Source: Bacteroidota bacterium (lineage in GTDB: Bacteria > Bacteroidota > Bacteroidia > AKYH767-A > OLB10). Taken from it: 64,000 nucleotides of DNA. The DNA is taken from positions 5,402 through 69,401 of the forward strand of contig JANXSD010000009.1 in NCBI GenBank assembly GCA_025352785.1. The letters run 5' to 3'. The notes under the pieces are model-generated. The model had not been told where the DNA came from, did not search any database, and saw nothing but the letters and a program-made list of their open reading frames with translations. Below, one piece after another: positions 27,122-64,000 of the stretch. A program made the position numbers and the translations under genes. Position 1 is the stretch's first letter, and each line of letters begins with the position of its first letter.

Positions 27122-27820
27122 TCATTCTGCAATTAGCAGTCGAACTCCTTTGCCATGTAATGTTACAATTTCAATGGAGGGATCTTTCTTTAGATACTTC
27201 CTTAAACGTGTAACAAACACATCCATGCTTCTTCCATTGAAATAATTATCATCTCCCCAAATTAATTTCAATGCTTTTTGCCTAGGTAAAAGATCATTTT
27301 TATGAGTACATAACAATCGTAACAAATCTGCTTCTTTGGGAGAGATACTTATCGTCTCTTCTCCATCAAATATTTTCCTATACTTATAATCAAATTGATA
27401 CAAACCAATTTTAAAATTTGTTTGGTCTTCCATTTCTGTAATTCCCATTGATCGTCGAAGTATGACATTAATTTTATGGAGCAAAACATCTGTATCAAAC
27501 GGTTTAGTTAAATAATCATCTGCACCTGCTTTATATCCTTTCAGCATATCTTCTTTCATTCCTTTAGCAGTAAGGAAAATAATAGGAACTTTTTTGTCAA
27601 CTTCTCTAATTTGAGTTGCTACCGAAAAACCATCCAATTTAGGCATCATCACATCCAAAATACAAAGGTCGAATGATTTAGTTCCAAATGTTTCTAAGCC
27701 AGCGACCCCATCTCTTGTCAAGGTAACGTCGTAACTATTCAATTCAAGATAGTTTTTCAACACATTGCCGAAATTAATATCATCTTCCACTAATAATATT
27801 TTAGCTTTTATTGTTTGCAT
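27122..27820 (-). CDS. OmpR-family response regulator
   Basis: Receiver motifs ILLVEDD, DLCILDVMMP and IFLTAK, plus a winged-helix C-terminus. Confidence 0.85.
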   Translation of the reverse strand: MQTIKAKILLVEDDINFGNVLKNYLELNSYDVTLTRDGVAGLETFGTKSFDLCILDVMMPKLDGFSVATQIREVDKKVPIIFLTAKGMKEDMLKGYKAGADDYLTKPFDTDVLLHKINVILRRSMGITEMEDQTNFKIGLYQFDYKYRKIFDGEETISISPKEADLLRLLCTHKNDLLPRQKALKLIWGDDNYFNGRSMDVFVTRLRKYLKKDPSIEIVTLHGKGVRLLIAE

Positions 27821-30622: not shown

Positions 30623-31495
30623 TTAATCGTTATTAGCACTTTCTTCAATAAGAAATTTTCGTTGTTTTAAAAGATAACCATTTCCTTTAGTCATTACATG
30701 CACAATTAAATTCTCAATACTTATAGGTGATCCTTCTGATAAATCGGCGATATTAGAATGACGAATTCCATGTCCATCAACAATTATGATTAATCCAGAA
30801 CCAATAGCTTCTAAATTATCATTACCACGAATTATAACACCAGTATCTTCACCTAAGCCAATTCCAATGCATGATGGATTGGAAGCAACAGCTTGTGCTA
30901 ATCTCCCGAATCGTCCACGTTTATCAAAATGCGAATCAATAATTACATCCTTAATAAAAGCTAGTCCTGTAGTAATTTTCACTTCTCCTTTTACGAGAGC
31001 GCCAGCACTACTACCTTGGTAAATCATGGTGTTACTCATCGCCATCGCTCCAGCAGAAGTTCCTGCGATAACTATTTCTTCGTCAATAAAACGTTGATGA
31101 AGTGTTGATAAAATTTCTGTACCTCCAAAAATTGTACTCAATCGAAGTTGATTTCCGCCTGTCATCATTACACCGTCACACTCACGAATCCGCTTGATAT
31201 AATCTGGATTTTGTGTATCGGCTCTATTCTTAATATGCATAATTTGGATGTTAGTACAACCAATTTTTGTAAATGCATGTAAGTAGTTTTCACCAACTTC
31301 TTCAGGAATGCTGGATGCCGTTGTGATAACTTCTATATGAGAGTTTTTCTGATTCTTAGTCTCGTGAGCAATCCTAGAAAGTATCTGAAGCTCGAAAAAA
31401 TTGAGATTATTTTTCTGTTGGAAATTAGGTTCTGGCTCGGTCCCTTTATCTTCGTTTCCGCCAATTGCAATTAACTTTCCCTTCGGTAATGTCAT
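30623..31495 (-). CDS. cphB: Cyanophycinase (peptidase S51)
   Basis: 290 aa with LIAIGGNEDKG and GTSAGAMAMS (Ser nucleophile context). It is divergent from cphA. Confidence 0.8.
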   Translation of the reverse strand: MTLPKGKLIAIGGNEDKGTEPEPNFQQKNNLNFFELQILSRIAHETKNQKNSHIEVITTASSIPEEVGENYLHAFTKIGCTNIQIMHIKNRADTQNPDYIKRIRECDGVMMTGGNQLRLSTIFGGTEILSTLHQRFIDEEIVIAGTSAGAMAMSNTMIYQGSSAGALVKGEVKITTGLAFIKDVIIDSHFDKRGRFGRLAQAVASNPSCIGIGLGEDTGVIIRGNDNLEAIGSGLIIIVDGHGIRHSNIADLSEGSPISIENLIVHVMTKGNGYLLKQRKFLIEESANND

Positions 31496-31667: not shown

Positions 31668-34343
31668 ATGAAGATTCGTGAGATACGTGCCATGCGTGGC
31701 CCCAATTATTGGTCAATCCGTCGTCATAAACTCATTGTGATGAAGCTCGACCTAGAAGAAATGGAAGAAAAACCGAGTAATAGTATTGATGGCTTCTCGG
31801 AAAGAATGGAAGCCATGTTTCCGACGATGTACTCTCATGAATGCTCTGAGTCACAGCCTGGTGGCTTTTTTAAACGAGTAAAAGATGGTACTTGGATGGG
31901 TCATGTGGTAGAACATATTGCTTTAGAAATTCAAACGCTAGCTGGAATGGATGTCGGTTTTGGCAGGACACGTTCCGCTTCAGAATACGGCGTTTATAAT
32001 GTAGTTTTTTCCTACATGGAAGAAAAAGTAGGCATCTATGCAGCTAAATCGGCGGTTCGAATTACTCAGTCCTTGGCTGATAACATTCCTTATGACCTTG
32101 AAGCTGACATTCAAGAGATGCGTGAAATCAGAGAAGACAATCGCCTTGGGCCTAGTACAGGATCAATCGTTGAGGAAGCTCAAGCAAGAGGAATTCCTTG
32201 GATTCGCTTAAATCGACATTCTTTAGTAATGCTTGGTTATGGTGTTAATCAAAAACGTATTCAAGCAACGGTAACGAGTAATACAAGTAGTATAGCGGTT
32301 GAAATTGCATGCGATAAAGAAGATACGAAAAATTTACTCGAAGCAGCTAATATCCCAGTGCCTAAAGGCCGAATTATTTATGATGAAGATGATTTGAAAG
32401 ATGCAATTGTATCTATTAATTATCCGATTGTTATTAAACCTATTAATGGAAATCATGGACGAGGAGCTACCATAAATATTCGCAATTGGGAAGATGCTGT
32501 GGAAGCTTTAGCTGCGGCCAAGAAAATTTCACGATCAGTAATTTGCGAAAAATATATTACAGGATTTGATCATCGCTTGCTAGTTATAAATTACAAATTT
32601 GTTGCTGCTGCAAAACGAACTCCAGCCGCTGTTAAAGGTGATGGCGTTTCAACTATACAAAAGTTAATAGATGAAGTAAATAAAGATCCTCGTCGTGGAT
32701 ATGGGCATGAAAAAGTATTGACATCCATTAAAGTGGATGATAATACATCTAATATTCTCGCAGAAAAAAATCTTACACTTGAAAGTATTTTACCTGTTGG
32801 CGAAATTTTATTTTTGAAATCTACTGCAAATATTTCTACTGGTGGTACAGCAACTGATGTTACTGATTTAGTACATCCACATAATGTTTTTATGGCTGAA
32901 CGAATCGCAAAAATTGTTGGACTTGACATTTGCGGTATTGATATTATGACTGATGATTTAAGTGAACCACTTGCTGATTCACAAGGTGCAATTCTGGAGG
33001 TGAACGCAGCCCCAGGATTTAGAATGCACCTCGCACCAACAGAAGGTTTACCACGTAACGTTGCCGATCCTGTTATTGAAATGTTATTTCCTCCAGGAAG
33101 TAGTTATCGAATTCCAATTGTTGCTGTTACTGGTACCAATGGAAAAACAACTACAACGCGATTACTTGCGCACATGGCAAAAACTGCTGGTTATAAAGTT
33201 GGATTTACTACTACTGATGGAATTTATATTCAAAATATAATGATGCAACGTGGTGATTGTACTGGGCCACAAAGTGCCGAATTTGTATTGAAAGACCCTA
33301 CTGTTGATTTCGCTGTATTAGAATGTGCACGAGGCGGAATTTTACGTGCTGGATTAGGATTCGGACAATGTGATATTGGTATTGTAACGAATGTGGCTGC
33401 AGATCATTTAGGCTTAAAGGATATTAATTCACTTGATGATATGGCACGTGTAAAATCAGTGGTTCCAGAAGCAGTGCGACCTGGAGGATATGCCATTTTA
33501 AATGCCGATGATGAACTCGTGGCAAATATGGCGAAAGGTTTACATAGTAACATTGCATATTTCAGTATGGATGAAAAAAATCCATTGATTCGTGAACATT
33601 GCGATAAAGGTGGATTAGCTGCTATAGCAGAGAATGGCTATATCACAATTTGTAAAGGAAATTGGAAAATTAGAGTTGATAAGATTGTCAATATTCCACT
33701 TACTTTTAGAGGGAAAGCAGTATTTATGATTCAAAATATTTTACCGGCTGTTCTTACTGGATTTATCCGCAATTTCGAAATGGAAGATATTCGTCTTGCG
33801 TTAGAAACATTTATTCCTTCCCCAGTTCAAACTCCAGGAAGAATGAACATGTTCGAATTCAAGAAATTTACGGTTATGGTTGATTACGCTCATAACCCAG
33901 CAGGTTTCCAAGCAATAGGAAGATTCCTTGAAAAGATTGAAGCCAAACCAAAGATGGGAATCATAGCAGGAGTTGGTGATCGTCGTGATGAAGATATTAT
34001 ATTGTTGGGAACTTTAGCTGCTAAAATGTTTGATGAAGTAGTTGTTCGTCAAGATAGAAATTTAAGAGGTAGAAGTGAAAGTGAAATAATCGAATTAATG
34101 CTTAAAGGTATTTATAGTGTAGATCCAAATAAAAAAGTTACTGTTATTCCTAGTGAACCAGAAGCCATTGACTACGCCTTTAAAAATGCGAAAAAAGGAG
34201 CATTTATATGTATCTGCAGTGATGTGGTTCCTGATGCACTTGAGCAAGTAATGCGGTATAAAGATGACGAAGATAAATTTGAAATAACAGCTGATGATAT
34301 TCCTAATCTTCAAGAAAATAGAAGTACTGAAAAACAAAGCTAA
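31668..34343 (+). CDS. cphA: Cyanophycin synthetase
   Basis: 891 aa. Begins MKIREIRAMRGPNYWS. It has an ATP-grasp domain plus a Mur-ligase-like domain (GTNGKTTTTRLL P-loop). Confidence 0.9.
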   Translation: MKIREIRAMRGPNYWSIRRHKLIVMKLDLEEMEEKPSNSIDGFSERMEAMFPTMYSHECSESQPGGFFKRVKDGTWMGHVVEHIALEIQTLAGMDVGFGRTRSASEYGVYNVVFSYMEEKVGIYAAKSAVRITQSLADNIPYDLEADIQEMREIREDNRLGPSTGSIVEEAQARGIPWIRLNRHSLVMLGYGVNQKRIQATVTSNTSSIAVEIACDKEDTKNLLEAANIPVPKGRIIYDEDDLKDAIVSINYPIVIKPINGNHGRGATINIRNWEDAVEALAAAKKISRSVICEKYITGFDHRLLVINYKFVAAAKRTPAAVKGDGVSTIQKLIDEVNKDPRRGYGHEKVLTSIKVDDNTSNILAEKNLTLESILPVGEILFLKSTANISTGGTATDVTDLVHPHNVFMAERIAKIVGLDICGIDIMTDDLSEPLADSQGAILEVNAAPGFRMHLAPTEGLPRNVADPVIEMLFPPGSSYRIPIVAVTGTNGKTTTTRLLAHMAKTAGYKVGFTTTDGIYIQNIMMQRGDCTGPQSAEFVLKDPTVDFAVLECARGGILRAGLGFGQCDIGIVTNVAADHLGLKDINSLDDMARVKSVVPEAVRPGGYAILNADDELVANMAKGLHSNIAYFSMDEKNPLIREHCDKGGLAAIAENGYITICKGNWKIRVDKIVNIPLTFRGKAVFMIQNILPAVLTGFIRNFEMEDIRLALETFIPSPVQTPGRMNMFEFKKFTVMVDYAHNPAGFQAIGRFLEKIEAKPKMGIIAGVGDRRDEDIILLGTLAAKMFDEVVVRQDRNLRGRSESEIIELMLKGIYSVDPNKKVTVIPSEPEAIDYAFKNAKKGAFICICSDVVPDALEQVMRYKDDEDKFEITADDIPNLQENRSTEKQS

Positions 34344-34427: not shown

Positions 34428-34614
34428 TACTTACATTTATTTTTATAAAATTAATTGCAAATAGTAGATGTGAGGCTAACGAATTTTATTCATCGTAAAA
34501 TAATTGCATTTCGTCGATAGAAAATATGATTTAATATGGAAAAATAATCCTACTAAAAATAGGTTGAGGAATTAGGAAATAGTATTTGTTACTATATATT
34601 TGTATGTACATATA

Positions 34615-37068
34615 ATGAGCAAATACTTACTTTATTTTTTGTTATTCTTTTCATCGTTTGCATTTCCTGCAGATACTACCAAAGTATGTACTGCGACTAG
34701 AGTAACTATTGCTCCAAAGATTAATGGCAATCTTGATGATGCTGTATGGCAACAAGGATTAGCTGTTGGAAATTTTACACAGCGGAGTCCTAATGATAAA
34801 CATCCAGAATCGCAGCAAACGGAGGTGAAAATAATTTATACAGATTATGCTATTTACATTGGTGCAGAAATGCACGATACTTCACCTGATAGTATATTGC
34901 AACAGCTAGGAATGCGAGATCAAAATGATTTAAATGCTGATCGCTTTTTTTTCAAGATTGACACTTACCATAATGAACAAGATGCATTTCAATTTGGAGT
35001 TTCTGCATCAGGAATACAATTTGATTCAAAATTCAGTGATTATACTTTTGATGCGGTTTGGACCAGTTCCGTTAGTGTTACAAAAAACGGATGGACAGCA
35101 GAAATGGAAATACCCTATTCAGCTATTCGCTTTCCGAAAAGAGAAGTACAAGAATGGGGTTTGCAATTCAACAGAGAAATTCGACGTAATCGAGAATTTG
35201 ATTTGTGGTCGTATGTTCCTAAAACAGCAGCCAACGCACAAAGCTATTGGGGTACATTAATAGGCATTACGAATGTTAAAACGCCAATTCGTCTATCTCT
35301 GATTCCATATATAGGTACTTCGTACGAACATGCGCCAGATTATGATGATGTAGGAAATTATAAATATAGTAATAGTACTTCTTATAATTATGGAGCCGAT
35401 GTAAAATATGGGATTGATGATCGCTTTACATTGGATATGTCGTTGTTACCAGATTTTGGGCAAGTGCAATCTGATAAAACAGTAAAGAATTTAAGTTACG
35501 AAGAAACCATTTATGATGAGAATCGTCCATTCTTTAAAGAAGGTACAGAATTATTTAACAAAGGAAATTTATTCTACTCAAGAAGAATTGGTAAAACTCC
35601 ATCTAACTATTATTCAATTTATGGGAATTTAAATGAAGGTGATATTGTAGTGGAAAATCCTAATAAAGTCAAGCTAATTAATGCTACAAAAATATCTGGA
35701 AGAATGGATCAAGGATTAGGTATAGGATTTTTTAATGCCCTTACAAATAATGCATACGCTAAAATTAAAGCTCAAGATGGAAGCACAAGAAAAATTTTAA
35801 CAGAGCCACTCACAAATTATACGATTTTAGTTTTAGATCAACAATTTAAAAACAATTCTGATGCATACCTTATCAATACGAGCACGCTACGTTCTGGAGA
35901 ATATACCAATGCAAATATAACAGGTGCTGGAGTTAAAATAAGCAATAAGAAAAACACCTACGCGATCAAAAGTGAAGGGTTTATTAGTCAGAATTATTTC
36001 AAAAAAATAGAAAACTATCAATATAATTCGAATCAATTAATAGGGTATAAATACCTACTTGGAATCGATAAACTCGGCGGGAATTTCAATTATGGTATTA
36101 ATAGAACTGTTAGGGATACAAATTATAGAAGTATTGATTTAGGATATTACGAGAGAGTTGGACAAAATGAAAACAAAAGTTATTTCAATTTTAATTTATA
36201 TAATCCTTGGGGATTTATTCGTGAATCCTATAACAATGTTCAAATGGATTATGCTACTGATTGTAAAACAGGAAAGATTGGATATAATGAAATTAGATTG
36301 AATTTATTTGTAAATACATTAAGTTATAATGCGTTCTATTTAAATGGAGGAATTCAACCAATTAGACCTTATGATTATTATGAATCGAGAACTCCGGGGA
36401 GAGTTTTTCATGGATACAATTATTATTATCTTAATAGTGGAATAAGTTCAGATTATAGAAAGTCGTTAGCGATTGATTATAGTTTTCAAGTTTCAAATTT
36501 CTTAAATCGATTTAAAGGAGAAGGGTATAAAAACGCAATCAGCATTAGAGTTCGACCATCCGATAAATTATTTATAATCTATAATTTCATTAGTGATTTT
36601 GATCCATATAATTTAGGATATGCAAATACAACTACTGACGGCGCCATAATTTTTGGCACCAGAAAAATAAATACTTGGGTTAACGAACTAAATTGCAATT
36701 TCATCTTTACTAAAGATATGAGTATTTCTTTAATTGGTCGTCATTATTGGAATACTGGAAAATATAGAAACTACTATTCACTTTTAGACGATGGTGAATT
36801 AGCAGAGAATAGTACGTATATTCAAAATAATGATTTCAATTTTAATGCATTCAATATCGATCTTGTTTATGAATGGAGATTCTCTCACGGAAGCATTTTA
36901 AACTTCATTTATAAAAACGGAATTCAAAATGAATCTGAACTTAAAACTTTAGATTATGGTAAAAACTTTCATACTGTTTTGCAATCACCACAAACTAATA
37001 TTTTCGCAGTGAAGTTGCTCTATTATTTAGATTATCAAAAAATACATACGAGGACAAATATTCCATAA
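34615..37068 (+). CDS. DUF5916-family secreted/outer-membrane protein with N-terminal CBM9-like carbohydrate-binding domain
   Basis: Signal peptide MSKYLLYFLLFFSSFAFPA, then ...KINGNLDDAVWQQ...NFTQRSPN, which is CBM9-like. It is Tyr/Asn-rich and beta-rich through to the C-terminus. ATG at 34615 is preferred over the TTG at 34600. Confidence 0.45.
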   Translation: MSKYLLYFLLFFSSFAFPADTTKVCTATRVTIAPKINGNLDDAVWQQGLAVGNFTQRSPNDKHPESQQTEVKIIYTDYAIYIGAEMHDTSPDSILQQLGMRDQNDLNADRFFFKIDTYHNEQDAFQFGVSASGIQFDSKFSDYTFDAVWTSSVSVTKNGWTAEMEIPYSAIRFPKREVQEWGLQFNREIRRNREFDLWSYVPKTAANAQSYWGTLIGITNVKTPIRLSLIPYIGTSYEHAPDYDDVGNYKYSNSTSYNYGADVKYGIDDRFTLDMSLLPDFGQVQSDKTVKNLSYEETIYDENRPFFKEGTELFNKGNLFYSRRIGKTPSNYYSIYGNLNEGDIVVENPNKVKLINATKISGRMDQGLGIGFFNALTNNAYAKIKAQDGSTRKILTEPLTNYTILVLDQQFKNNSDAYLINTSTLRSGEYTNANITGAGVKISNKKNTYAIKSEGFISQNYFKKIENYQYNSNQLIGYKYLLGIDKLGGNFNYGINRTVRDTNYRSIDLGYYERVGQNENKSYFNFNLYNPWGFIRESYNNVQMDYATDCKTGKIGYNEIRLNLFVNTLSYNAFYLNGGIQPIRPYDYYESRTPGRVFHGYNYYYLNSGISSDYRKSLAIDYSFQVSNFLNRFKGEGYKNAISIRVRPSDKLFIIYNFISDFDPYNLGYANTTTDGAIIFGTRKINTWVNELNCNFIFTKDMSISLIGRHYWNTGKYRNYYSLLDDGELAENSTYIQNNDFNFNAFNIDLVYEWRFSHGSILNFIYKNGIQNESELKTLDYGKNFHTVLQSPQTNIFAVKLLYYLDYQKIHTRTNIP

Positions 37069-37998: not shown

Positions 37999-38282
37999 TT
38001 ATATATGAAATAAATTATTTAAAAAAAATTATATTTTAGGTAAAATAAAAAACATAAAAATCATAAATGTAAAATACACCATTAGTACGGAGAAACAAAA
38101 TCTTTCGAAGCTATTAAAACTATAACCCTCATATCTCCTAAGCAATTGTACCATTGATTTTTGTTCTTTCATTACCTATACAATTTATAACTTAAAGTTA
38201 ATTTTTTCGAATTATTAATAGTAAATAAAATAATCCATAATGATTATTTTATTACAATAATAGTTTATTCATCTTGATAATA

Positions 38283-38684
38283 TTAATACGAATTCAATAC
38301 GAATTTGAAGCCAACAAAAGCTACAGAGATTATCAATATTGAAATGAATAAGTGAACAATATTTCCTGGTTGCTGTAGCCAATGACGTTTAAACATCCAC
38401 AATAATTTTTGCTGTTGCAACCATGTTAATCTCGTTAAATATTCTCTTTGTGTAGTCTTGTACGATGACTCTGTAATAATTCTATTTATATCTCTTTTAA
38501 ATCGTTTATTTTCTCTTTCGCAAGTAATTTCAAAATGAGTATCATCATAATAAAATGATCTTCCAACTTCTTCAATTGGCAATTTTCCGAGCTTCTTGAT
38601 TTGCTTTCCATCAAGTACTAACTGACCACCACATTCGAAGTACTTACCCTTGTCAAGGTAATAAAACTTTGTTTTTATTTTCAT
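38283..38684 (-). CDS. Hypothetical small protein with C-terminal TM anchor (orphan, within an AT-rich island)
   Basis: 133 aa with a basic soluble N-terminal part and a C-terminal HLFISILIISVAFVGFKFVL helix. It is flanked by about 280 and 385 bp of very AT-rich non-coding DNA. Confidence 0.25.
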   Translation of the reverse strand: MKIKTKFYYLDKGKYFECGGQLVLDGKQIKKLGKLPIEEVGRSFYYDDTHFEITCERENKRFKRDINRIITESSYKTTQREYLTRLTWLQQQKLLWMFKRHWLQQPGNIVHLFISILIISVAFVGFKFVLNSY

Positions 38685-39069
38685 TTTACAGCCATGTTAA
38701 GATGCACTATTCCCGTTGAGAACTGAATTAATTAGTATATATTAGGGCTGAGAGGTGTAAACTAGGAATATAAAAAAGTCCATCATCACGAGTGTAATAT
38801 AGCCCTAAGCTTCAATATTACCCATATATTGCTTTGATAAATCCAAAACAATATGCGCATTATACAAGTGGCTCTGCTAAAATCGAGACATGTGTAGATT
38901 TGAACTGGAAAAAGAGGGATTTTATTAATTACGAGGCTATTTCGATTAAAAAATATAGCTGATAATCCATTTTAACAAAATTATAACAATTTAGGCCTTA
39001 TAAACTGTTGAAAGATTCATGATTACAACAGGGAAGATCATTAAATTTGCCTAGCAAAATAAAAAATAT

Positions 39070-41229: not shown

Positions 41230-43209
41230 TTACAAGATCGTAAATTCGGTACGGCGATTTTGCGAGCGCCCCTCTTCCGTATCGTTTGAAGCGAGCGGCT
41301 TACTCTTACCGTAGCCCTTATACGTCAATCTAGCAGAAGAGATTCCATCTTTAACAAGAAAATCGTAAACTGCTTTTGCCCTGTTTTCTGATAGTATCTG
41401 ATTTAATTTCGGATCACCGGAGCTATCGGTATGTCCGCTAACTTCAATACGAACGGAAGTATTAGCAATTAAAAACGCTTTGAGTTTCGCTAATTCCGAA
41501 TTCGATTCTGCCCTTAAATCAAACTTATTGACGTCAAAAAAAATATTCTTCAATACAACATGTTCACCAGCTTTTGGCTTGTGCAATTTAATGAGCAAAT
41601 CGTATGCATGTTGTTTATCAGTTGCTTCTTTGCATTCGAAAAAATCAGAATAAAATAAATATTGTTCCTTGTTAACATTCAACATGTAATTTTTTCCTGC
41701 AGGTAATGATGCTAAAAACTCTCCTCTCTTTTGATCAGTTGAATTTGATAATACTAGTTTTCCTGTAGTAACATCGATCACTTCAAACTGTGCTGACAAC
41801 GGTAAATTTGTTTCTGCATCAACAACTTTTGCTTTGAGATAGCTCACTAATAAAGGTTGTGCTGCAGGATATAAATCAAAGCTATACAAATCCAAACTAC
41901 CGTATCCTCCCGCTCTATTACTTGCGAAATACGCCTTCTTTCCATCAGCACTCACCACTAAACTATTCTCATCACCCGAAGTGTTTATTGGGTAGCCTAG
42001 ATTCATTGCTGGTCCCCACGTTCCATCAGGCAGGCGACGACTCAAAAAAATATCCAACCCTCCCATTCCAGGTAAACCATTTGAAGTGAAATACAATGTT
42101 TGATTATCGGGATGAATAAAAACGGATTCTTCTTTTCCAATTGTATTGATATTATCGTTTAATCTTTTTGGTTCCGACCAATGATGATCCGCTTGAAATT
42201 CGCTGTAATAAATATCGTCTTGTTGTGAACCATGATCACGCGAATTAGAACCACGAATAAAATATAATGTCTTTCCATCAGAGGAGAAAGAAGGTTGCGT
42301 TTCCCAATCACCCGTATTGATTGGTGGCCCGAGATTCATTGGCTTCGACCATGATCCATCTGCAACGCGTTGTGATAAATAAATATCGCATCTGCCCTTT
42401 CCATCGTTGCGATCACAAGCTGCAAAAAATAATAATCGTCCATCAGCAGAAATACTTGGAGCACCTTCATTTAAAATTGAATTCAATGGTGATCCTGCAT
42501 TCATTGCTTGTTGCCATGAGGTATCTTTTTTACTACTTAGATAAAAATCTTCTTGATGACCTTCCATCGCTTGTCGATCAGGAATATCTCTCGTAAAAAT
42601 AATTTCATTTTGATCAACTGTAAACGAAGGAAAATATTCAGCATTAATAGAGTTGATAGCCGAACCCATATTAATTGGATTAAAAGGAACTGGATGCTTC
42701 AATGCTTCCATAGCAAATTCGCAATTCTTAATTCCTTGGTCAACCAAAATAGTTTTCTCTGGATAAATTACGGATACTAATTTTTTATAGTTTTTAAAAT
42801 CTTCTAAAGCGCGTTCGTACTTTGAAGTTTTCATTTCTAATCGAGCCAACTGGTAAAAATTATTTGGAAAAAAAGTAGGATTAATATCAATGGCTTTGTT
42901 ATAACGTAATATGGCAGCTTCATAATCGCCTTGCTCAGTTAAAACTTCTGCAAGAATTACATGTGCTTCAATAAAGTTTGGATCCTTATCTATTGCTTGT
43001 AAAAATGAACGTATCGCTTTTTCAAAATCACGTTGGTCATAATATTTCGTTCCATTTTCAAATGCGTTAATTGCAGATTTTGAGGTTGTAGAATAACGAA
43101 GCGTTTGTGCGTTTACGATTTGAAATGAAAATAAAATTATCGCTAGTAAAAGAAATTCTCTTAAATAGTTGATGCCTATAAATTTGCTTTTAAAATTCAT
43201 GAATTGCAT
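41230..43209 (-). CDS. OmpA-family protein with N-terminal TPR repeats and TolB-like (PD40) beta-propeller repeats
   Basis: C-terminal OmpA domain (VSGHTDSSGD...NRRTEF), PD40 motifs (DGKTLYFIR, DGKKAYFASNR) and TPR helices. The probable signal peptide begins at MNFKSKF. Confidence 0.75.
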   Translation of the reverse strand: MQFMNFKSKFIGINYLREFLLLAIILFSFQIVNAQTLRYSTTSKSAINAFENGTKYYDQRDFEKAIRSFLQAIDKDPNFIEAHVILAEVLTEQGDYEAAILRYNKAIDINPTFFPNNFYQLARLEMKTSKYERALEDFKNYKKLVSVIYPEKTILVDQGIKNCEFAMEALKHPVPFNPINMGSAINSINAEYFPSFTVDQNEIIFTRDIPDRQAMEGHQEDFYLSSKKDTSWQQAMNAGSPLNSILNEGAPSISADGRLLFFAACDRNDGKGRCDIYLSQRVADGSWSKPMNLGPPINTGDWETQPSFSSDGKTLYFIRGSNSRDHGSQQDDIYYSEFQADHHWSEPKRLNDNINTIGKEESVFIHPDNQTLYFTSNGLPGMGGLDIFLSRRLPDGTWGPAMNLGYPINTSGDENSLVVSADGKKAYFASNRAGGYGSLDLYSFDLYPAAQPLLVSYLKAKVVDAETNLPLSAQFEVIDVTTGKLVLSNSTDQKRGEFLASLPAGKNYMLNVNKEQYLFYSDFFECKEATDKQHAYDLLIKLHKPKAGEHVVLKNIFFDVNKFDLRAESNSELAKLKAFLIANTSVRIEVSGHTDSSGDPKLNQILSENRAKAVYDFLVKDGISSARLTYKGYGKSKPLASNDTEEGRSQNRRTEFTIL

Positions 43210-46484: not shown

Positions 46485-47993
46485 GTGAAACAAATAATAT
46501 TTAAATACATAATCTTGGGAATCATTTTATTGATTCCTAAGATTTCTTGTTGTCAATACACCAATAACATCTGGTGCTTTGGAGATAGTGCTGGTATTAA
46601 TTTTAAGACAAATCCACCGACTGCAATTACCTCTGGACTTTTAACTAAAAGTGGCTCAGCAAGCATTACGGATAATTTTGGAAATATTTTATTTTACGGT
46701 TCAGCTTCCGACGATAGTATTAAATCTTCTGGTAAAGATAGTTCAGGAATATTAAAAAATAGGTTGAATGCAACAAAACAAAACGGGACTAATCTGTACA
46801 GTGAGTGGTATCATGTGATGACCATTATACCAAAATCTATAAGCGATAGTACCTTTTATGTTTTTACTGGAGGCGTTTTACATTCGTTTGGGTTGTATTA
46901 TAGTGTTGTCGATTTAAAGCAAAACACTGGGTTGGGTGCAGTGGTGCAGAAAAATGTTCAGTTGGATACTTTTCCCGTGTTTGATGGAATTACTGCTGTT
47001 AAACATGGCAACGGAAATGACTGGTGGCTGCTATATCAAAGATGGGACGCATTGAGTTCGCAGCAAAATAATGAATTTCATCTGCTGCTAGTCGATTCGT
47101 CAGGGATTCAAATGCAATCCTTACAAAATATCGGAAGTCTTCATGATAACGGTGCTGGTGACCTAAGTTTTAATTCGAATGGAACTAAAATGATCTATGT
47201 TGAATGGAGAGGAATGATTGAGCTGTATTATTTTGATCGGTTTACTGGAATTATTTTAAATCCAATAAATATTGAACCCGAACTTTCAGTTAATCCCGTT
47301 CCTTATTATACTAGCGCAGTTTTTTCTTCAAATGGAAGAATTTTATATGTCACATCGTATCAGTCAGTTTATCATAAGGCAAGCTATCTGTATCAATACG
47401 ATCTTACAGCCGCCAACATCGCAGCAAGCAGAATTTTACTTGATTCTGTTTGATACCCAATTGCTATGGGAGTAATGGAAATGGGGCCAGATAAAAAAAT
47501 CTATTTGTCTGCAGAAAACGATATCGTTACCATACCTTATCCTGATTCAGTACATACATCAGTGTGCGATAATCTTTCAGTAATTAATTATCCAGATAGC
47601 CTTGGCCAGGCTTGTAATTTTCAGCCTTATAGTTTTTATCAAGGTGGAAACAAAGTTTATATTGGACTTCCGAACAACCCAGATTATACTTTAGGACCTA
47701 TGGATACACTAACGGCAGTGCATGAACTAACCCCGGTTTTAACAACTAACGAACTTAAAATATTTTATCATCCAGCCTGAGATATTGCATTTATTAACGC
47801 AGATAAATTAACTGGTAGAAAATATACCTTGAGCTTATTTGATATAACAGGTAAATTAATTTTTAGAGAAAATGGAACTCTAAGCTCACAATATTTTACC
47901 AAAGATTTAAGCATGCAAAGCTTTGGGATAGGGGTTTATATTGCTACCCTGAAAACTGACAAGGAAAGATTAAATAAGAGATTTGCGAAATAA
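46485..47993 (+). pseudogene. T9SS-sorted secreted adhesin-like protein interrupted by two in-frame TGA codons (47451-47453 and 47778-47780)
   Basis: Three consecutive ORFs are all in the same frame: 46485-47453, 47466-47780 and 47781-47993. The last piece is a Por_Secre_tail (GVYIATLKTDKERLNKRFAK). The N-terminal part is paralogous to the gene at 62066. Confidence 0.5.
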
Positions 47994-57108: not shown

Positions 57109-57627
57109 ATGCAGCCACAACAAATTGGTTCAAAAATCTATATAATCAAAGGTGAGCGCATAATGCTCGATTATGATTTAGCAATGCTGTATGCTGTAGA
57201 AACTAAGACTGTAAATCAAGCAGTTAAGCGTAATTTAAAGCGTTTTCCTCCTGATTTCATGTTCCGCCTAACAGTTGAAGAATGGGTTGATATGCGGTCA
57301 CAAATTGTGACCGCATATCAAAGTAAAAGAAATACTAGTAGTACTCCTTATGCTTTTACCGAACAAGGAGTAGCGATGCTTAGTGGCATCCTTAAAAGCG
57401 ACAAAGCAATTAATATGAACATCGCAATTATGCGAGCTTTTGTAGAAGTTAGGAAGGTGTTATTAATCAAAAATGACTGGCAAGAGCAATTAAATGAAAT
57501 TTGCGAACGTCTTGGTGAACATGATGTTCAACTCAACCTAATTTACGAGGTTATGGAAAAACTAAGCGAAGAAAAGTCGATTCAAAAAGATCAAGAGCAA
57601 AGAACCAAAATTGGCTTTCTACATTAA
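57109..57627 (+). CDS. ORF6N-domain protein (KilA-N/antirepressor-like DNA-binding domain)
   Basis: N-terminus IYIIKGERIMLDYDLAMLYAVETKTVNQAVKRNLKRFPPDFMFRLT is the ORF6N pattern. The C-terminus is a coiled coil. Confidence 0.6.
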   Translation: MQPQQIGSKIYIIKGERIMLDYDLAMLYAVETKTVNQAVKRNLKRFPPDFMFRLTVEEWVDMRSQIVTAYQSKRNTSSTPYAFTEQGVAMLSGILKSDKAINMNIAIMRAFVEVRKVLLIKNDWQEQLNEICERLGEHDVQLNLIYEVMEKLSEEKSIQKDQEQRTKIGFLH

Positions 57628-57633
57628 ACACAA

Positions 57634-58965
57634 CTATGGTTTTTTCTGACCACGTGTTTTAGGCTTACCATATTTCAATCTTTGTGTTTGTGCTCTCGAC
57701 ATTTTAATATTCACCTTTTTATTTTTGTCTTTCTTCTCATGAAAACTTGCTCCAGCAGGATCCGTATTTAATTGTTTTATAAGCACTGCTTTCATACTAA
57801 TTTTAGGTTTCTCATCCTCAGTCAATACATCAGAAAACAGGAGATCATCAGGGCATTGAATTACAGGAATTTTTTGATTCATTAACGTTTCTATCCTTTC
57901 TAAACTTTCTTTCTCCGAATCACTAACAAAGGCTATTGCGGTTCCTGTTTTGTCAACTCGTCCGGTTCTTCCAATGCGATGAATATATGTTTCTGGTGAT
58001 TCGGGCATATCAAAATTAAATACATGTGTTACTTCCGAAATATTTATTCCTCGGGCAATAATATCTGTAGCAATAAGAATTCGAATTTCTTCCTTCTGAA
58101 AATTATTTACCGTTTCAAATCGTAAATTCTGAGATTTATTCGAATGAATTACTGCGATCTCCTCGGGAAATTTCTCATTTATAGAATTGAAAATTTGATC
58201 TGCTAATTTCTTAGTCGCCGCAAAAACCATCACTTTACTAAATACCTCTCTATCTGATAATAACAACTTTAACAAATTGATTTTCGTATTGTAATTCGGA
58301 ACTAAATACATCGATTGCTGAATCTTATCTACAGGAGTTCCTGTTGGTGCGGCTTCAATAGTTACTGGCGTATTAAAAAATTCTGATATTAATATTTCTA
58401 TTTCATCAGTAATTGTAGCCGAAAAAAGTAAGTTCTGTCTCTTTGCTGGTAAGAAACTAAAAACACGTGTTAATTGAGAACGAAAGCCAAGATCCAATAA
58501 TTCATCCATCTCATCAATTACCAATCGTTTTACAGATTTTAATTTCAAGGATCCATTCAATGTTAAATCGAGTAATCTTCCTGGTGTTGCAACTAAAATA
58601 TCAACACCATTGTAAACAAGATCCATCTGAGGTTTAATATTTACTCCTCCATAAACACCAGCTACAATAACATTAATATAAGTAGTAAGTTTTTTCACTT
58701 CCTCCACAACCTGAATTACTAATTCTCGTGTTGGTACTATGATTAATATTTGAGTGTAATGGTCATTCGAAAATTCAAGCAAACGTAAACAAGGCAAAAT
58801 ATAGGCTATCGTTTTACCTGTCCCTGTTTGTGCAATACCAATAACATCCTTACCTGACATGATCACAGAAAAAGCTTTCTCCTGAATTAATGTTGGTTGA
58901 GAATATCCAAGATCATCCAAAGCATTTTTTAAGGGCTTATTCAGATTTAAATCACTAAAATTCAT
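57634..58965 (-). CDS. DEAD-box ATP-dependent RNA helicase (DEMD variant of motif II) with basic C-terminal tail
   Basis: Motifs AQTGTGKT, PTRELV, DEMDELL, SAT and HRIGRTGR. C-terminal tail KKDKNKK...RGQKKP. Confidence 0.85.
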   Translation of the reverse strand: MNFSDLNLNKPLKNALDDLGYSQPTLIQEKAFSVIMSGKDVIGIAQTGTGKTIAYILPCLRLLEFSNDHYTQILIIVPTRELVIQVVEEVKKLTTYINVIVAGVYGGVNIKPQMDLVYNGVDILVATPGRLLDLTLNGSLKLKSVKRLVIDEMDELLDLGFRSQLTRVFSFLPAKRQNLLFSATITDEIEILISEFFNTPVTIEAAPTGTPVDKIQQSMYLVPNYNTKINLLKLLLSDREVFSKVMVFAATKKLADQIFNSINEKFPEEIAVIHSNKSQNLRFETVNNFQKEEIRILIATDIIARGINISEVTHVFNFDMPESPETYIHRIGRTGRVDKTGTAIAFVSDSEKESLERIETLMNQKIPVIQCPDDLLFSDVLTEDEKPKISMKAVLIKQLNTDPAGASFHEKKDKNKKVNIKMSRAQTQRLKYGKPKTRGQKKP

Positions 58966-58989
58966 ACTTGCATTTTAATCAATGTTATT

Positions 58990-59032
58990 AAAAAGTTGTG
59001 AAGCAGTTATCAATCAAACTACTTCACAACTT
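58990..59032 (-). terminator. Intrinsic terminator after the M16 peptidase gene (minus strand)
   Basis: agttgtgaagcagtt / aactacttcacaact hairpin with a T-run on the minus strand. Confidence 0.55.
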
Positions 59033-59043
59033 TAAACTTTTTA

Positions 59044-61959
59044 TTAATATCCGAAGATATCACTTAGTCCTAATTCTGTTACTGTACCATATTTCTGAAG
59101 TGATTTCATATCCAACTTATCATGATTTCCTAAAACTACAATATGATAATTGAGAGGTTTTATAAATTGCTCCTGAAACTTTTTAATATCTGATAATGTT
59201 AATGTTGGTATTTGCGAGTAAACTTCCTTGCGAATGTCATAATTCAATCCCAACTTTTTATTGCGATGATACATGGCCAACAAATCATCTTTTGTGATAC
59301 GCTCCGTTTGTACTTGTTGCAATGCTCCATCTTTCGCATTTTCAAATCCTTTTTCCGACATTGGAAATTCTTTAAGTAATTCCATCATACCAGCTGCAGC
59401 CTCAGGAAGTTTATCCACTTGTGATCCAATATAAGCGAAGTTATAAAAAGACTTCTCAAGAATATTCGGCGCAGAATATCGTGAACTCACCGAATACGCT
59501 AAGGCTTTACTCTCGCGTAAGGTTTGAAATATTGGTGATGACATTCCTCCACCAAAATAGCGATTGTACAAATTAATTTTCGCCAACTGTGATTTATCAT
59601 AATGCATTCCTTGAGCTAAGAAAACAACTTCAGCTTGTTTCATATCATAATTCACAACAAATACTTTCGATGTATCTGTTTTTAATTCTACAAACTTAAT
59701 TGGTGCTGGGATTGGCTTTAATGTAGCGGCCGCTTTGTGAGTTTTGTTAAGTGTATTCGTTATAGTTAAGCTATCCGCCGGACCATAATAATCAACATAA
59801 TGTTGGTATCCCGTTAATCCTTTTAATAACGATACAAGTTCTGTTGCACTTGTTGCATTCAATTCACTCTCGCTTAAGATATTTGTTTGTGCTGATTTTG
59901 CTCCGTATTTTGCATAACTCTGCATCGCACCTAAAATAATGTTCTTATTCAACTTTGCGTTTTCGCGACGTTTCATAATATCATCTTTTAAATTTGATAA
60001 TGCCGCAGTATCTGCTTTCATATTCGCTAATAAATCTTCTAGTAATAGTAACGCAGGCACAAAATTCTCATGAATACCATCCAACGATATAGACGATTCA
60101 TCTTCACTCGCACCAGCATTAAAGCTACATCCTAACTTATAAAACTCTTCTTGTAATTTTGTTGAAGTTAGTTTTGTAGTTCCTAAATATTTCAAATACT
60201 CCAAAGCAAGGCTAAGTTTTTTATTATTATTGGATCCCATCTCAAATACATAATCTAAACTAAATAAATTGTTTTCAATATTTTTAACCATGTAAACGGG
60301 AATGCTATTTTTAATTTTACTGGTCTTAATTGATTTATTGAAATCGATAAATACGGGATCAATAGATGGAGCTTTATGGTCTGCCAAATTTCTCACAAAA
60401 TCTGATTGCATTTCACGATTCATTTTCACAGGAGTTATTGCTGGTTTTACTACCTTTACAACACTCTCATCTTTTCCTGTTCGTTTGTACACTATCACGT
60501 ATCCTTCGCCATACCAAGTACGAACGAAATCTATGACTTGCTGCTTATTAATTTTAGAGATACGATCAATCTTATTTACTTCATCTTTATAATTTACACC
60601 ATCTACTTCAGTACTCAACATTGCAGAAGCTCTTGCATTATTATTTTCATAAGAAGTTGCTTGCTCCTTTTTTAAATTATTCACTACAGCACTTATCATC
60701 CAATCCGGAAAGTTCCCCAATTTAATTTCCATAATCTGTCCTAGTAATAAATCACGTACTTCTTCCAATTTCTGTCCATCGCGCGGTCGTCCAGAAATCA
60801 CATGTACGGAATAATCTTTCATGATGTTTGTTGAAGATCCAGATGTCAATACTTTTTGTGAATTATTTAAATTTAAATCCAATAATCCAGCTTGTCCGTT
60901 CGATAAAATATAATCAACAACTGTAAGCATATCCGCATCCTGACTATTTGCTCCTTTAAAACGAAATCCTAATGTTACACTTTCCGCATCAGGTCCAAGC
61001 ACTTCTTTTACGATGGGTTGTTTTAAAAATCGTTCTTCTGGAACAACAAATGTGGGAACTGGCTTCGATGGCAGCTTTCCAAATTTTTCATCAATTACAC
61101 GAATAGCATTATCTGGATCAAAATCTCCACTCAATGAAATCACCATATTATTAGGTACATAATACGTATTGAAGAAATTCTTTATCTCTATCAAGGAAGG
61201 ACTTTTCAAATGTTCTACAGTTCCAATAGTCGTTTGTGTTCCATATTGATGTTTTTCGAAAATACCACCTAATAATGCTTCATAAACTTTACGGCTATCA
61301 TTATCAAGAGCTCTATTTTTTTCTTCATAAACCGCTTCAAGCTCCGTATGAAATAAACGCATTACAGGTTTGCGAAAACGTTCAGCCTCCACGGTAAAGA
61401 AATTTTCGAATTGATTTGAAGGAACATTATTAACGTAAACAGTTTGCTCTACAGATGTAAAAGCATTCACACCAGACACACCTAACGATGCCATCATCTT
61501 ATCAAATTCGTTTGGAATAGCAAAAGTTGCAGCAACACCAGAAACAGAGTCTATTTGATGATATATCGCAACACGCTTTGAACTATCTTTTGTTTGTCCA
61601 TAAGCTTGATAAAGATTTACTATACTATCCAACAAGGGTGCTTCCTTCGAATAATCTAATGAACCATAATGATCTGTCCCTTTAAAAAGCATATGTTCTA
61701 AATAATGTGCTAGTCCAGTATGATCTGCTGGATCATTCTTACTTCCTGCCTTCACTCCTATCATGGATTGGAAGCGAGGTTCATCTTTATAAACTGATAA
61801 ATAGACCTTTAACCCATTATCTAACGTGTAAATGTGCGCTTTTAAAGGATCACCAGGGACAGTATCAAAAGGAAATATTTTGGTTTTGCTAATTTGGCTG
61901 AAGCTCAAAAGAGGCAAAAGGATTAATAATAGAAGGAATTTACGCGTGTACTGATACAT
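59044..61959 (-). CDS. Secreted M16-family zinc metallopeptidase (pitrilysin-like, four-domain)
   Basis: Signal peptide and inverted zinc motif HYLEHMLFKGT (HxxEH). At 971 aa it is consistent with tandem M16 active and inactive halves. Confidence 0.8.
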   Translation of the reverse strand: MYQYTRKFLLLLILLPLLSFSQISKTKIFPFDTVPGDPLKAHIYTLDNGLKVYLSVYKDEPRFQSMIGVKAGSKNDPADHTGLAHYLEHMLFKGTDHYGSLDYSKEAPLLDSIVNLYQAYGQTKDSSKRVAIYHQIDSVSGVAATFAIPNEFDKMMASLGVSGVNAFTSVEQTVYVNNVPSNQFENFFTVEAERFRKPVMRLFHTELEAVYEEKNRALDNDSRKVYEALLGGIFEKHQYGTQTTIGTVEHLKSPSLIEIKNFFNTYYVPNNMVISLSGDFDPDNAIRVIDEKFGKLPSKPVPTFVVPEERFLKQPIVKEVLGPDAESVTLGFRFKGANSQDADMLTVVDYILSNGQAGLLDLNLNNSQKVLTSGSSTNIMKDYSVHVISGRPRDGQKLEEVRDLLLGQIMEIKLGNFPDWMISAVVNNLKKEQATSYENNNARASAMLSTEVDGVNYKDEVNKIDRISKINKQQVIDFVRTWYGEGYVIVYKRTGKDESVVKVVKPAITPVKMNREMQSDFVRNLADHKAPSIDPVFIDFNKSIKTSKIKNSIPVYMVKNIENNLFSLDYVFEMGSNNNKKLSLALEYLKYLGTTKLTSTKLQEEFYKLGCSFNAGASEDESSISLDGIHENFVPALLLLEDLLANMKADTAALSNLKDDIMKRRENAKLNKNIILGAMQSYAKYGAKSAQTNILSESELNATSATELVSLLKGLTGYQHYVDYYGPADSLTITNTLNKTHKAAATLKPIPAPIKFVELKTDTSKVFVVNYDMKQAEVVFLAQGMHYDKSQLAKINLYNRYFGGGMSSPIFQTLRESKALAYSVSSRYSAPNILEKSFYNFAYIGSQVDKLPEAAAGMMELLKEFPMSEKGFENAKDGALQQVQTERITKDDLLAMYHRNKKLGLNYDIRKEVYSQIPTLTLSDIKKFQEQFIKPLNYHIVVLGNHDKLDMKSLQKYGTVTELGLSDIFGY

Positions 61960-62065
61960 ATATTGGTGGTTTTTTATTGATCCCTCAAAAGTATAACATA
62001 GTTTCTATCTAAATAACATTAATAAAAGTCTTGTCTTGCCTCATTTTTTTTTAGATTTTTGTAAG

Positions 62066-64000
62066 GTGCGTTCAACTACTCTCATTTCCACCTTCTTTAG
62101 TCTTTGTTTGATATTGTTATTCTCCGCTTCCAAAGGGCAGAAGCAAGATAGATATTGGTATTTTGGAAATAGAGCAGCTCTAAATTTCAATACAACGCCG
62201 CCCACTCCTCTCGCAAATTCAAATATGAATGCTTATGAAGGATGTGCCACGGCATCAGATACTGCGGGAAATTTATTATTTTATACTGATGGCGCTACTG
62301 TCTGGAACGCCAATCATGTTCCGATGTTAAATGGAAGCGGACTTTTCGGATACGGTAGTACTCAAGCTGCGATAGTTGTTCCAGCTCCACTTAACTTAAA
62401 TAAATATTACATATTTACGGTGGATACTAATGGAGGTATTAGAGGTTTCTGTTATAGTGAAGTTGATATGACCCTGAATGGAGGATTGGGAGACATAACT
62501 ATAAAAAACACACTTATCCAAACTCCAGTTGCCGAAAAACTTACTGCTACACATGACGCAAATAATGTGGATGTATGGGTCGTAGTTCATGGATGGAATT
62601 CAAATGCTTTTTACTCCTATAAAGTTACATCGACAGGTGTAAACTTAACGCCAATGATTAGTTCGGTGGGCGCTGTTCAGGGTGGTGTTTACACCAATTC
62701 GCACGGATACATGAAAATTTCTCCGAATTCAAAAAGGATAGCTTGTGCTATTAGAGGGTTACGACAAGCCGAATCATTCGACTTTAACAACTCCTCTGGT
62801 CAAATTAGTAACCCTGTAAACTTTACTTATACACGTGATGTGTATGGGTTAGAGTTTTCGCCAAATAGTAATCTCCTTTATGTGGCAAATTTCTCATCTA
62901 ATTCTGACATCAATCAATACGATCTTTTGGCTGGATCTCCAGCAGCAATCGCAGCATCAGCAACCGTTATAGGTACTTCAAGTGGATTTATGGGTGCTAT
63001 GCAATTAGGACCCAATGGTAAGATTTATGGCACTCAATTTCTAAAAACCTCTCTTATTGTAATCGATCAGCCTAACCTTTCTGGTACCTTCTGCGCTTTC
63101 AATAATTCAGGTCAAAGTGTTGCCCCTGGTACTACCACTAATTACGGATTACCAAATATTTTGTTAAGCTATTTTATCACTGCTGATTTTACTTATGTCG
63201 ATACCTGCTCGAGTGCTCCAACTACATTCACATTACAGTTTTCACCAGGAATCGCCGATTCTGTTCGATGGAATTTTGCCGATCCTGCATCAGGAGCTGC
63301 AAATACGAGCATACAAAGCAATCCGCAACATACCTTTGTGGCAGGTGGCTATTATAGTGTTCAACTAATTGCTTACCAAGGAGTATTATCTGATACCGTA
63401 ACCCACCTAATTCAAATCATCGAGCGACCAGCTCCCAATTTAGGTAATGATATCTCTGCATGTCAGGGAAATTCATTCATGTTTTATCCGGGAAATTTTA
63501 CTGGCGATATCATTACCTGGAAAGACAACAGCTCAGGACCAACATTTACATCGACCATTTCAGATACTATTTGGGTTACTGTTGATCGTATCGGTTGCAT
63601 TGGAAGTGATACTGTAATCTTAAAAATAAATCCGATTCCGTTTATAGATTTTGGTTTAGATAAAACAATATGTAGTAGCGACACTTTGCGCTTAGATGCC
63701 ACAACACCATCTGCAACCTATTTATGGCAAGATGGAAGTACTAAATCCTATTATGATGTAAGCGTTACTAACAATTATGGCGTAAGTATAACTGTAAATG
63801 GATGCATTGGAGGAGATACTATTTATGTTACCTCAAATCCAGCACCTATTGTATATTTAGGTAATGATACTACCATTTGTAAAGGCTTTCAATTGTTTCT
63901 TGATGTAACAAGTCCGGATCCAAATGCAACTTATAATTGGCAAGATGGAACTGCAAATTCCATCTATTTCGTTTCGAATCCGGGTCTATATTATGTAACC
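62066..64000 (+). CDS. Large secreted repetitive adhesin-like protein (partial, runs off the window); intact paralog of the 46485 pseudogene
   Basis: Absent from the ORF track. A continuous frame opens after TAA at 61994. GTG at 62066 gives MRSTTLISTFFSLCLILLFSASKGQKQ, then DRYWYFGNRAALNFNTTPPT..., which parallels NIWCFGDSAGINFKTNPPT... in the 46485 ORF. Downstream there are repeated modules of about 80 aa (LGNDxxxCxG...ATYxWQDGST...NGC..DTI). Confidence 0.5.
   Translation, partial: MRSTTLISTFFSLCLILLFSASKGQKQDRYWYFGNRAALNFNTTPPTPLANSNMNAYEGCATASDTAGNLLFYTDGATVWNANHVPMLNGSGLFGYGSTQAAIVVPAPLNLNKYYIFTVDTNGGIRGFCYSEVDMTLNGGLGDITIKNTLIQTPVAEKLTATHDANNVDVWVVVHGWNSNAFYSYKVTSTGVNLTPMISSVGAVQGGVYTNSHGYMKISPNSKRIACAIRGLRQAESFDFNNSSGQISNPVNFTYTRDVYGLEFSPNSNLLYVANFSSNSDINQYDLLAGSPAAIAASATVIGTSSGFMGAMQLGPNGKIYGTQFLKTSLIVIDQPNLSGTFCAFNNSGQSVAPGTTTNYGLPNILLSYFITADFTYVDTCSSAPTTFTLQFSPGIADSVRWNFADPASGAANTSIQSNPQHTFVAGGYYSVQLIAYQGVLSDTVTHLIQIIERPAPNLGNDISACQGNSFMFYPGNFTGDIITWKDNSSGPTFTSTISDTIWVTVDRIGCIGSDTVILKINPIPFIDFGLDKTICSSDTLRLDATTPSATYLWQDGSTKSYYDVSVTNNYGVSITVNGCIGGDTIYVTSNPAPIVYLGNDTTICKGFQLFLDVTSPDPNATYNWQDGTANSIYFVSNPGLYYVT

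Follow-up and report, generated by a model that had tools for sequence, protein, structure and literature searches.

A predicted T9SS type B cargo with an N-terminal beta-propeller at the edge of a Bacteroidota contig window

Results

Genes and features of the locus

The window analyzed here is a stretch of 64,000 nucleotides from a Bacteroidota bacterium. It has a GC content of 33.5%, and the stop codons TAA, TGA, and TAG are used 28, 7, and 6 times, respectively. Scans of the whole window for tRNAs and Rfam families found nothing. The gene under study starts at position 62066 on the plus strand and runs off the window end (62066 gene). Its neighbors are housekeeping genes, encoding LptD, an amidase, an Fe-S/CCG pair, MlaE/F/D, an ORF6N protein, a DEAD helicase, and an M16 peptidase. 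The T9SS-related genes in the window encode three proteins with a type A CTD and a PorE-like protein that scores below cutoff. The latter matched the PorE model NF052230 with an E value of 3e-84 and the CHU_0125 model with an E value of 3e-89, in both cases below the equivalog cutoffs. None of the T9SS core genes (gldKLMN, sprA) was found within the 64-kb window. The features considered below are as follows.

10638-12248, minus strand, M43 metallopeptidase with type A CTD
15019-17232, plus strand, M43 metallopeptidase with type A CTD
41230-43209, minus strand, TPR/PD40/OmpA protein, PorE-like, below the equivalog cutoffs
46485..47993, plus strand, paralogue with propeller and T9SS type A CTD, with two in-frame TGA codons at 47451-47453 and 47778-47780
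62036..62065, plus strand, conserved stretch TTGCCTCATTTTTTTTTAGATTTTTGTAAG directly upstream of the GTG start, including the alternative in-frame TTG at 62036
62066..62137, plus strand, GTG start and Sec/SPase I signal peptide, aa 1-24, predicted cleavage before Gln25
62138..63175, plus strand, seven-bladed beta-propeller domain, aa 25-370, N-terminal, paralogous to the 46485 gene
63191..63424, plus strand, PKD domain, aa 376-453, PF18911 PKD_4 match, beta-sandwich in the AlphaFold2 model
63425..63634, plus strand, Ig-like Cys-pair module 1, aa 454-523, assigned by motifs and by similarity to module 2 (z = 8.9)
63635..63841, plus strand, Ig-like Cys-pair module 2, aa 524-592, assigned by motifs and by similarity to module 3 (z = 14.6)
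63842..64000, plus strand, Ig-like module 3, aa 593-645, cut by the window end

Open reading frame and start codon of the 62066 gene

A preliminary description of the window had reported a plus-strand frame without stop codons from 61997 to the window end. Translation of the window agreed with this: the frame is open for 668 codons, with no stop up to base 64000. The longest competing ORF on either strand that overlaps positions 62000-64000 encodes 72 aa and lies on the minus strand. The ORF list skips ORFs that run off the source sequence, and the 62066 gene was thus left out; the sole cause is the end of the 64-kb window, which falls about 183 codons short of the stop codon. The word "unannotated" in the preliminary description therefore holds for the ORF track, but it reflects a window-edge effect only, as homologues of the gene are routinely annotated. 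The gap in the track is an artifact of the window edge, not hidden biology, and the main value of the finding lies in correct annotation.

GTG 62066 had been taken to be the only available upstream start. This was too strict, as an in-frame TTG is present at 62036 and was chosen by gene callers for the orthologues P0001 and P0002 (MPHFFLDFCKV...), but the evidence favors the GTG. The 30 nucleotides from the TTG to the GTG are identical at the nucleotide level between the window and the orthologous contig L023, and a single base differs in contig L024, which shares only 75% nucleotide identity with the window overall. Unlike these 30 nucleotides, the signal-peptide codons just 3' of the GTG diverge freely among the orthologous loci. 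A 35-nucleotide element, the GTG, and the signal peptide are also present in the metagenome contig L026, a fourth orthologous contig, and the GTG start is kept in four orthologous loci. Homologues with an ATG start, e.g. P0010, carry 23-25 residues ahead of the RYWYFG motif. TTG 62036 is therefore disfavored as the true start, because the stretch between the two codons is conserved at the nucleotide level without variation of the synonymous type, because the codons past the GTG diverge freely, and because the signal peptides of homologues are 23-25 aa long. Judged from these alignments, the conservation of 62036..62065 has the pattern of a non-coding regulatory stretch rather than that of a coding one, and the stretch is probably promoter or 5'-leader sequence.

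From GTG 62066, the N terminus reads MRSTTLISTFFSLCLILLFSASKGQKQDRYWYFG, and the translation MRSTTLISTFFSLCLILLFSASKG is followed by QKQDRYWYFG. The signal peptide combines a short n-region bearing a single basic residue with a hydrophobic core of 14 residues and a c-region of small residues, and Gln takes position +1. The preliminary description had proposed a signal peptide from this GTG, and the classical pattern MRSTTLISTFFSLCLILLFSASKG before Gln, kept together with the GTG in four loci, fits that proposal. In the AlphaFold2 model, residues 3-19 form a helix of low pLDDT, residues 19-24 a disordered linker, and the folded domain begins at about residue 28. A "Q-rule" has been described for signal peptidase I substrates of Bacteroidetes (PMC5837995), and the Gln at +1 of the 62066 protein appears to match it.

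The 645 codons in the window were compared with the orthologous gene of L023, giving 186 synonymous and 47 non-synonymous codon differences. By codon position, there were 38, 20, and 201 differences at the first, second, and third positions, respectively. Because third-position differences dominate, the gene is under strong purifying selection. The 62066 gene is real and conserved.

Orthologues, synteny, and the C terminus beyond the window

A protein search returned 2,312 homologues, with top matches of 800-870 aa that carry PF13585 and PF18911; many of them are already named, e.g. "T9SS type B sorting domain-containing protein". The top match is P0001, a protein of 838 aa with 93% identity that contains PF13585 (CHU_C) and PKD_4; the two homologues ranked after it have 74% and 76% identity. 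A protein search of genome contigs gave relatives only, with a best identity of 74%, and an exact 60-mer search of metagenome contigs for the window's own contig gave no match.

Positions 57626-64000 of the window align with 424-6798 of L023, which encodes P0001, over 6,375 nucleotides at 89% identity and without an indel. The gene order DEAD-box helicase, M16 peptidase, and 62066 gene is common to the window, L023, and L024 (which encodes P0002). The helicase and the 967-aa M16 peptidase are on the minus strand and the 62066-type gene is on the plus strand. Downstream of the gene, both L023 and L024 carry Lactamase_B, ParA, ParB, DUF5683, and DapB. Base 64000 of the window corresponds to base 6798 of L023, where the gene stops at 7350. 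From this orthologue we infer that 552 nucleotides, i.e. 183 codons and the stop, are lost past the window end, and that the full protein has about 828 aa from the GTG (838 aa as called), the first 645 of which are covered by the window. Beyond the window edge, the remainder of module 3, a fourth module, a type B CTD, and the stop codon would follow. In P0001, modules lie at residues 603-673 and 674-742 and the CTD at 749-823. Residues 749-823 matched TIGR04131 with 50.3 bits (cutoff 35) and PF13585 with 51.7 bits (cutoff 27), passing the curated cutoffs. PF13585 is also present in P0002 and P0003, and in 117 of 120 among the homologues listed. A search for a T9SS CTD past the window end, as suggested in the preliminary description, thus leads to a type B CTD in the colinear, 93%-identical orthologue, the end of the window's own copy lying outside the window.

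Domain organization of the 62066 protein

AlphaFold2 was run on the window protein with a 40-sequence alignment and yielded a model with a mean pLDDT of 89.4. Residues 28-370 are modeled as seven blades of four strands each, with about 28 strands in total, as in seven-bladed beta-propellers of the lactonase/YVTN class. Invariant polar residues in this part of the protein include E58, H84, E157, K158, H175, K217, D239, E263, and Q313. Three small beta-sandwiches follow (the PKD domain, module 1, and module 2), and then the truncated module 3. In structure comparisons, the fold resembles 1L0Q (propeller plus PKD) and seven-bladed propellers, with a sequence identity to the structural matches of just 10-13%. 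Lactonase enzymes and binding proteins are both represented among the closest folds.

The propeller of the window protein had no match in Pfam (at E<=1) or NCBIfam; an NCBIfam scan of the in-window fragment gave no match, nor did a PDB sequence search at E<=1. The lactonase family PF10282 also gave no profile match, either for the window protein at E<=1 or for P0001 at E<=10. By contrast with these results from the model libraries, a phmmer search with the propeller against 1.84 billion cluster representatives (at 50% identity) returned 14,225 representatives at E<=1e-3 and 6,424 at E<=1e-30, and some of the proteins hold two to four propeller copies. By these sequence counts, the propeller is a very common domain that the Pfam and NCBIfam libraries do not match in the window protein. 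A curated model could be merited for a family this large.

The domain after the propeller matched PF18911 PKD_4 at residues 385-437 with 30.7 bits, passing the Pfam gathering score of 27. The tandem modules behind it contain the motifs LGNDxxxCxG, ATYxWQDG, and (N/I)GCIGxDT(I/V). The conserved pattern given in the preliminary description was thus recovered, and the modules are significantly alike, with z values of 8.9 (modules 1 and 2) and 14.6 (modules 2 and 3) in local alignments against shuffled sequences. Their number and length had been overstated, however. Instead of at least four modules of about 80 aa, the window contains two complete modules and one truncated module (2.75 in total), preceded by one PKD domain, and the real period is 69-70 aa. 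A fourth module is located past the window edge and could be observed in the orthologue only, which has four modules in total. The 78-aa PKD domain showed no significant sequence similarity to the modules (z < 2.2, local alignment against shuffles), and its interpretation as another module copy was rejected on this ground.

Cysteine conservation was assessed across 40 homologues. C466 is invariant, and C466, C511, C536, C580, and C605 are all invariant or conserved in at least 90%. These conserved pairs would be consistent with one disulfide per module. Each module was modeled as a small beta-sandwich. At residues 593-629, PF19081 Ig_7 (Ig-like domain, CHU_C-associated) gave a weak match of 19.6 bits, below the cutoff of 27.3; the same family is a precomputed match in many homologues. 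Models for HYR or SprB repeats had no Pfam match at E<=1 for the window protein or at E<=10 for P0001. Among the repeat families named in the preliminary description, PKD therefore stood as PKD_4 and the Ig-like assignment reached sub-threshold level, and SprB and HYR gave nothing. Taken with the orthologue for the part past the window, the predicted order is Sec signal peptide, propeller, PKD domain, four Cys-pair Ig-like modules, and type B CTD.

The disrupted paralogue at 46485

Paralogy with the gene at 46485 had been proposed and was supported by BLASTP, in which residues 1-395 of the 62066 protein aligned with the 322-aa ORF at 29% identity over 318 columns (E value of 4e-25). The ORF at 47466 carries on the homology with the 62066 protein (MGAMQLGPNGKIY versus MGVMEMGPDKKIY, BLASTP). 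All three pieces of 46485-47993 are in one frame, and the tail at 47781-47990 matched TIGR04183 with 28.3 bits (cutoff 23), identifying it as a type A CTD. The 1,127 homologues of the paralogue are undisrupted, with a length of about 500 aa and a PF18962 domain. At the site of the second TGA these homologues have an invariant Trp, consistent with a TGG-to-TGA change, and the first TGA lies at a variable position.

An independent Logan contig (L025), 99.85% identical, has both TGA codons, which rules out an assembly error behind the two stops. Recoding of TGA was likewise ruled out, because TGA acts as a regular stop codon in the rest of the window: it terminates 6 further long ORFs, and read-through of TGA is required in none of the 41 long ORFs. 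The gene had been described as a pseudogene; with two real in-frame TGA codons and intact homologues, it is indeed disrupted, and sequence comparison points to probable recent inactivation, not to recoding.

The paralogue shares with the 62066 protein a homologous propeller (29%), a signal peptide, and Gln at +1. In contrast to the 62066 protein, the family of the 46485 paralogue has a type A CTD (PorV/PorU route) and no PKD and Ig stalk, and the copy in the window has two nonsense codons.

Discussion

Proposed secretion route and role

Proteins with a type B CTD cross the outer membrane via the T9SS, and PorP/SprF-like outer-membrane proteins act as their specific shuttles and anchors (PMC9143113; PMC12618676). 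In Flavobacterium johnsoniae, 9 of the 12 type B cargo genes adjoin a shuttle gene of their own, whereas three "orphan" cargos share one shuttle encoded elsewhere, Fjoh_1677 (PMC12618676). We consider it very probable that the 62066 gene encodes a cargo of this type, displayed at the cell surface of a low-GC Bacteroidota bacterium. The preliminary description had suggested a secreted Bacteroidetes cell-surface protein with Ig/PKD-like modules, and the signal peptide, the PKD_4 match, the Ig-like modules, and the CTD of the orthologue are all in line with that. The adjective "large" used there is relative, the protein having about 828 aa.

The 62066 protein has in common with T9SS type B cargos the Sec signal peptide and a multidomain, beta-rich passenger, and a type B CTD is present in the syntenic orthologues. 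It differs in the passenger, which has its own layout of propeller, PKD domain, and four Ig-like modules, and its own CTD lies outside the window. The gene also resembles those of the F. johnsoniae orphans that use Fjoh_1677 (PMC12618676) in having no PorP/SprF gene as a neighbor, judging from L023 and L024, where none was found next to the 62066-type gene. A Pfam match to PorP/SprF was also lacking among the 39 window ORFs scanned, a set without the ORFs at 26518-27030 and 27122-27820. With no PorP/SprF gene adjacent, the 62066 gene is classed among those of the "orphan" type B cargos, of which it would be a further example, and the PorP/SprF shuttle must be encoded elsewhere.

In the proposed route, the precursor would pass the inner membrane through Sec, and signal peptidase I would cut before Gln25. 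The type B CTD would then be recognized at the SprA/Sov translocon and passed to a PorP/SprF-type shuttle encoded elsewhere in the genome, to which the protein would remain non-covalently anchored. Given the order propeller, PKD, four Ig-like modules, and CTD, the propeller is farthest from the CTD anchor, and the PKD and Ig-like modules may form a stalk that holds it off the cell. The protein would most likely serve to display the propeller as a ligand-binding head at the surface, where it may act as an adhesin or lectin.

Alternative interpretations

An open frame that arose by chance, or a pseudogene in decay like the 46485 paralogue, is barely conceivable for the 62066 gene. The window does contain a disrupted paralogue, and the end of the gene is outside view, but 645 stop-free codons in DNA of 33% GC, the strong excess of synonymous over non-synonymous differences relative to the orthologue, the high-confidence AlphaFold2 model, and intact full-length orthologues on three other contigs all speak against decay. 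For an intact gene, a gliding-motility adhesin in the strict sense of SprB, mounted on the gliding track and carried across the cell surface, would be another possibility. SprB of F. johnsoniae likewise has a type B CTD, and a surface anchor of the PorP/SprF type would presumably be common to both proteins (PMC9143113). Judged from the CTD of the orthologue, the 62066 protein shares this class, and databases label homologues "gliding motility-associated". The label, however, stems from the domain name of TIGR04131 rather than from tested function. With only about 828 aa, the 62066 protein is much smaller than SprB, whose length runs to thousands of residues. The window protein (at E<=1) and P0001 (at E<=10) also gave no match to the SprB-repeat family PF13573, L023 and L024 hold no adjacent sprF-like gene, and a propeller head takes the place of SprB's long repeat filament. 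Among the type B cargos of F. johnsoniae, motility adhesins are also a minority (PMC12618676). The "gliding-type adhesin" of the preliminary description was thus not upheld for want of SprB repeats and an adjacent sprF, and we regard a role of the SprB kind as very unlikely.

The main alternative to an adhesin or lectin is an enzyme, displayed at the surface or released via the T9SS, with the propeller as a lactonase-like or cycloisomerase-like catalytic domain. Lactonases are among the closest folds, but no lactonase model in Pfam or NCBIfam was matched even at E<=1, and the identity to the structural matches is as low as that given above (10-13%). Non-enzymatic propellers, namely the S-layer protein 1L0Q, the BP39L lectin, and WD40 proteins, reach nearly equal structural scores, and the layout of a propeller on a PKD-Ig stalk is typical of binding proteins. 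On balance, an enzyme appears unlikely and a surface-displayed, ligand-binding propeller is preferred. Quite unlikely, on the sequences at hand, is a more specific proposal in which the propeller family would constitute a separate kind of lectin or enzyme module on Bacteroidota surfaces, with a conserved site on the top face, and the conserved location of this "orphan" copy between an M16 peptidase gene and parAB would point to a housekeeping role in the envelope instead of accessory adhesion.

Comparison with known propellers and family context

The same order of propeller and PKD domain is found in the surface-layer fragment of Methanosarcina mazei (PDB 1L0Q, tandem YVTN beta-propeller plus PKD). 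Identity to 1L0Q is only 11-18%, and 1L0Q is archaeal and has no T9SS signal. The likeness looks like a resemblance at the level of the modeled fold, without evidence of close common ancestry. Compared with seven-bladed lactonase-type propellers (PF10282; PDB 4QRJ, 6NAU, and 6IGB), the 62066 protein lacks a sequence-profile match. The 62066 gene is an ordinary member of a very large and routinely annotated class of Bacteroidota T9SS type B cargos, and adds one more predicted cargo to a family with thousands of members. The propeller family is found fused to type A or type B T9SS signals, and both versions occur within the same window.

Conserved DNA upstream of the probable type B cargo gene

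The main gene (GTG start at 62066) and its M16 peptidase neighbor are divergently oriented, and the intergenic region they share contains two conserved blocks:

62036-62070, + strand: 35-nt element TTGCCTCATTTTTTTTTAGATTTTTGTAA(G/A)GTGCG, conserved at equivalent positions in the orthologous contigs L023, L024, and L026

61986-62003: second conserved block, CAAAAGTATAACATAGTT

The 35-nt element lies immediately upstream of the GTG start and spans the GTG itself. It was almost perfectly conserved in the four orthologous loci, which elsewhere are 75-89% identical. Within the element, TAGATTTT, a putative promoter motif, agrees in seven of eight positions with TAnnTTTG, the Bacteroidetes -7 promoter motif.

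Propeller paralogues

The propeller domain of the main gene has a disrupted paralogue in the window:

46485-47993, + strand: propeller paralogue with type A CTD and two in-frame TGA codons

No frameshift was found in this gene. The TGA codons are located at 47451-47453 and 47778-47780; the latter stands in place of an invariant Trp. The two stops recur in L025, an independent contig that is 99.85% identical. Over 3,966 nt the window and L025 differ at six positions, and three of these differences are amino acid changes within the paralogue, a hint of relaxed selection. The domain is also found in tandem arrays in giant proteins, since some of the proteins recovered by phmmer (P0241-P0254; 1,200-3,800 amino acids) carry 2-4 copies.

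Other genes of the window

Further genes were assigned as follows:

10638-12248, - strand: Peptidase_M43 (pappalysin-like) metalloprotease with type A T9SS CTD (Por_Secre_tail)

15019-17232, + strand: Peptidase_M43 (pappalysin-like) metalloprotease with type A T9SS CTD (Por_Secre_tail) and additional fibronectin type III domains

21660-23606, - strand: GH85 endo-beta-N-acetylglucosaminidase homologue

30623-31495, - strand: Peptidase_S51 (cyanophycinase-like) protein

31668-34343, + strand: cyanophycin synthetase, 891 amino acids, with Cyanophycin_syn N-domain, ATP-grasp, and Mur ligase domains

34600-37068, + strand: CBM9 and DUF5916 protein, 822 amino acids

37123-37998, + strand: 291-amino acid ORF

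41230-43209, - strand: TPR, PD40 propeller, and OmpA_C protein, 659 amino acids, PorE-like architecture

The 291-amino acid ORF had no Pfam or NCBIfam match. The ∼1 kb that follows it (37999-39069) contained no ORF of at least 150 amino acids and no Rfam or tRNA match. The PorE-like protein matched NF052230 (T9SS_PorE; E 3e-84) and NF053607 (CHU_0125 family; E 3e-89), in both cases under the equivalog cutoff. In P. gingivalis, PorE occurs in a complex with PorP and type B cargo (PMC9143113). The Peptidase_S51 and cyanophycin synthetase genes form a divergent cyanophycin metabolism pair.
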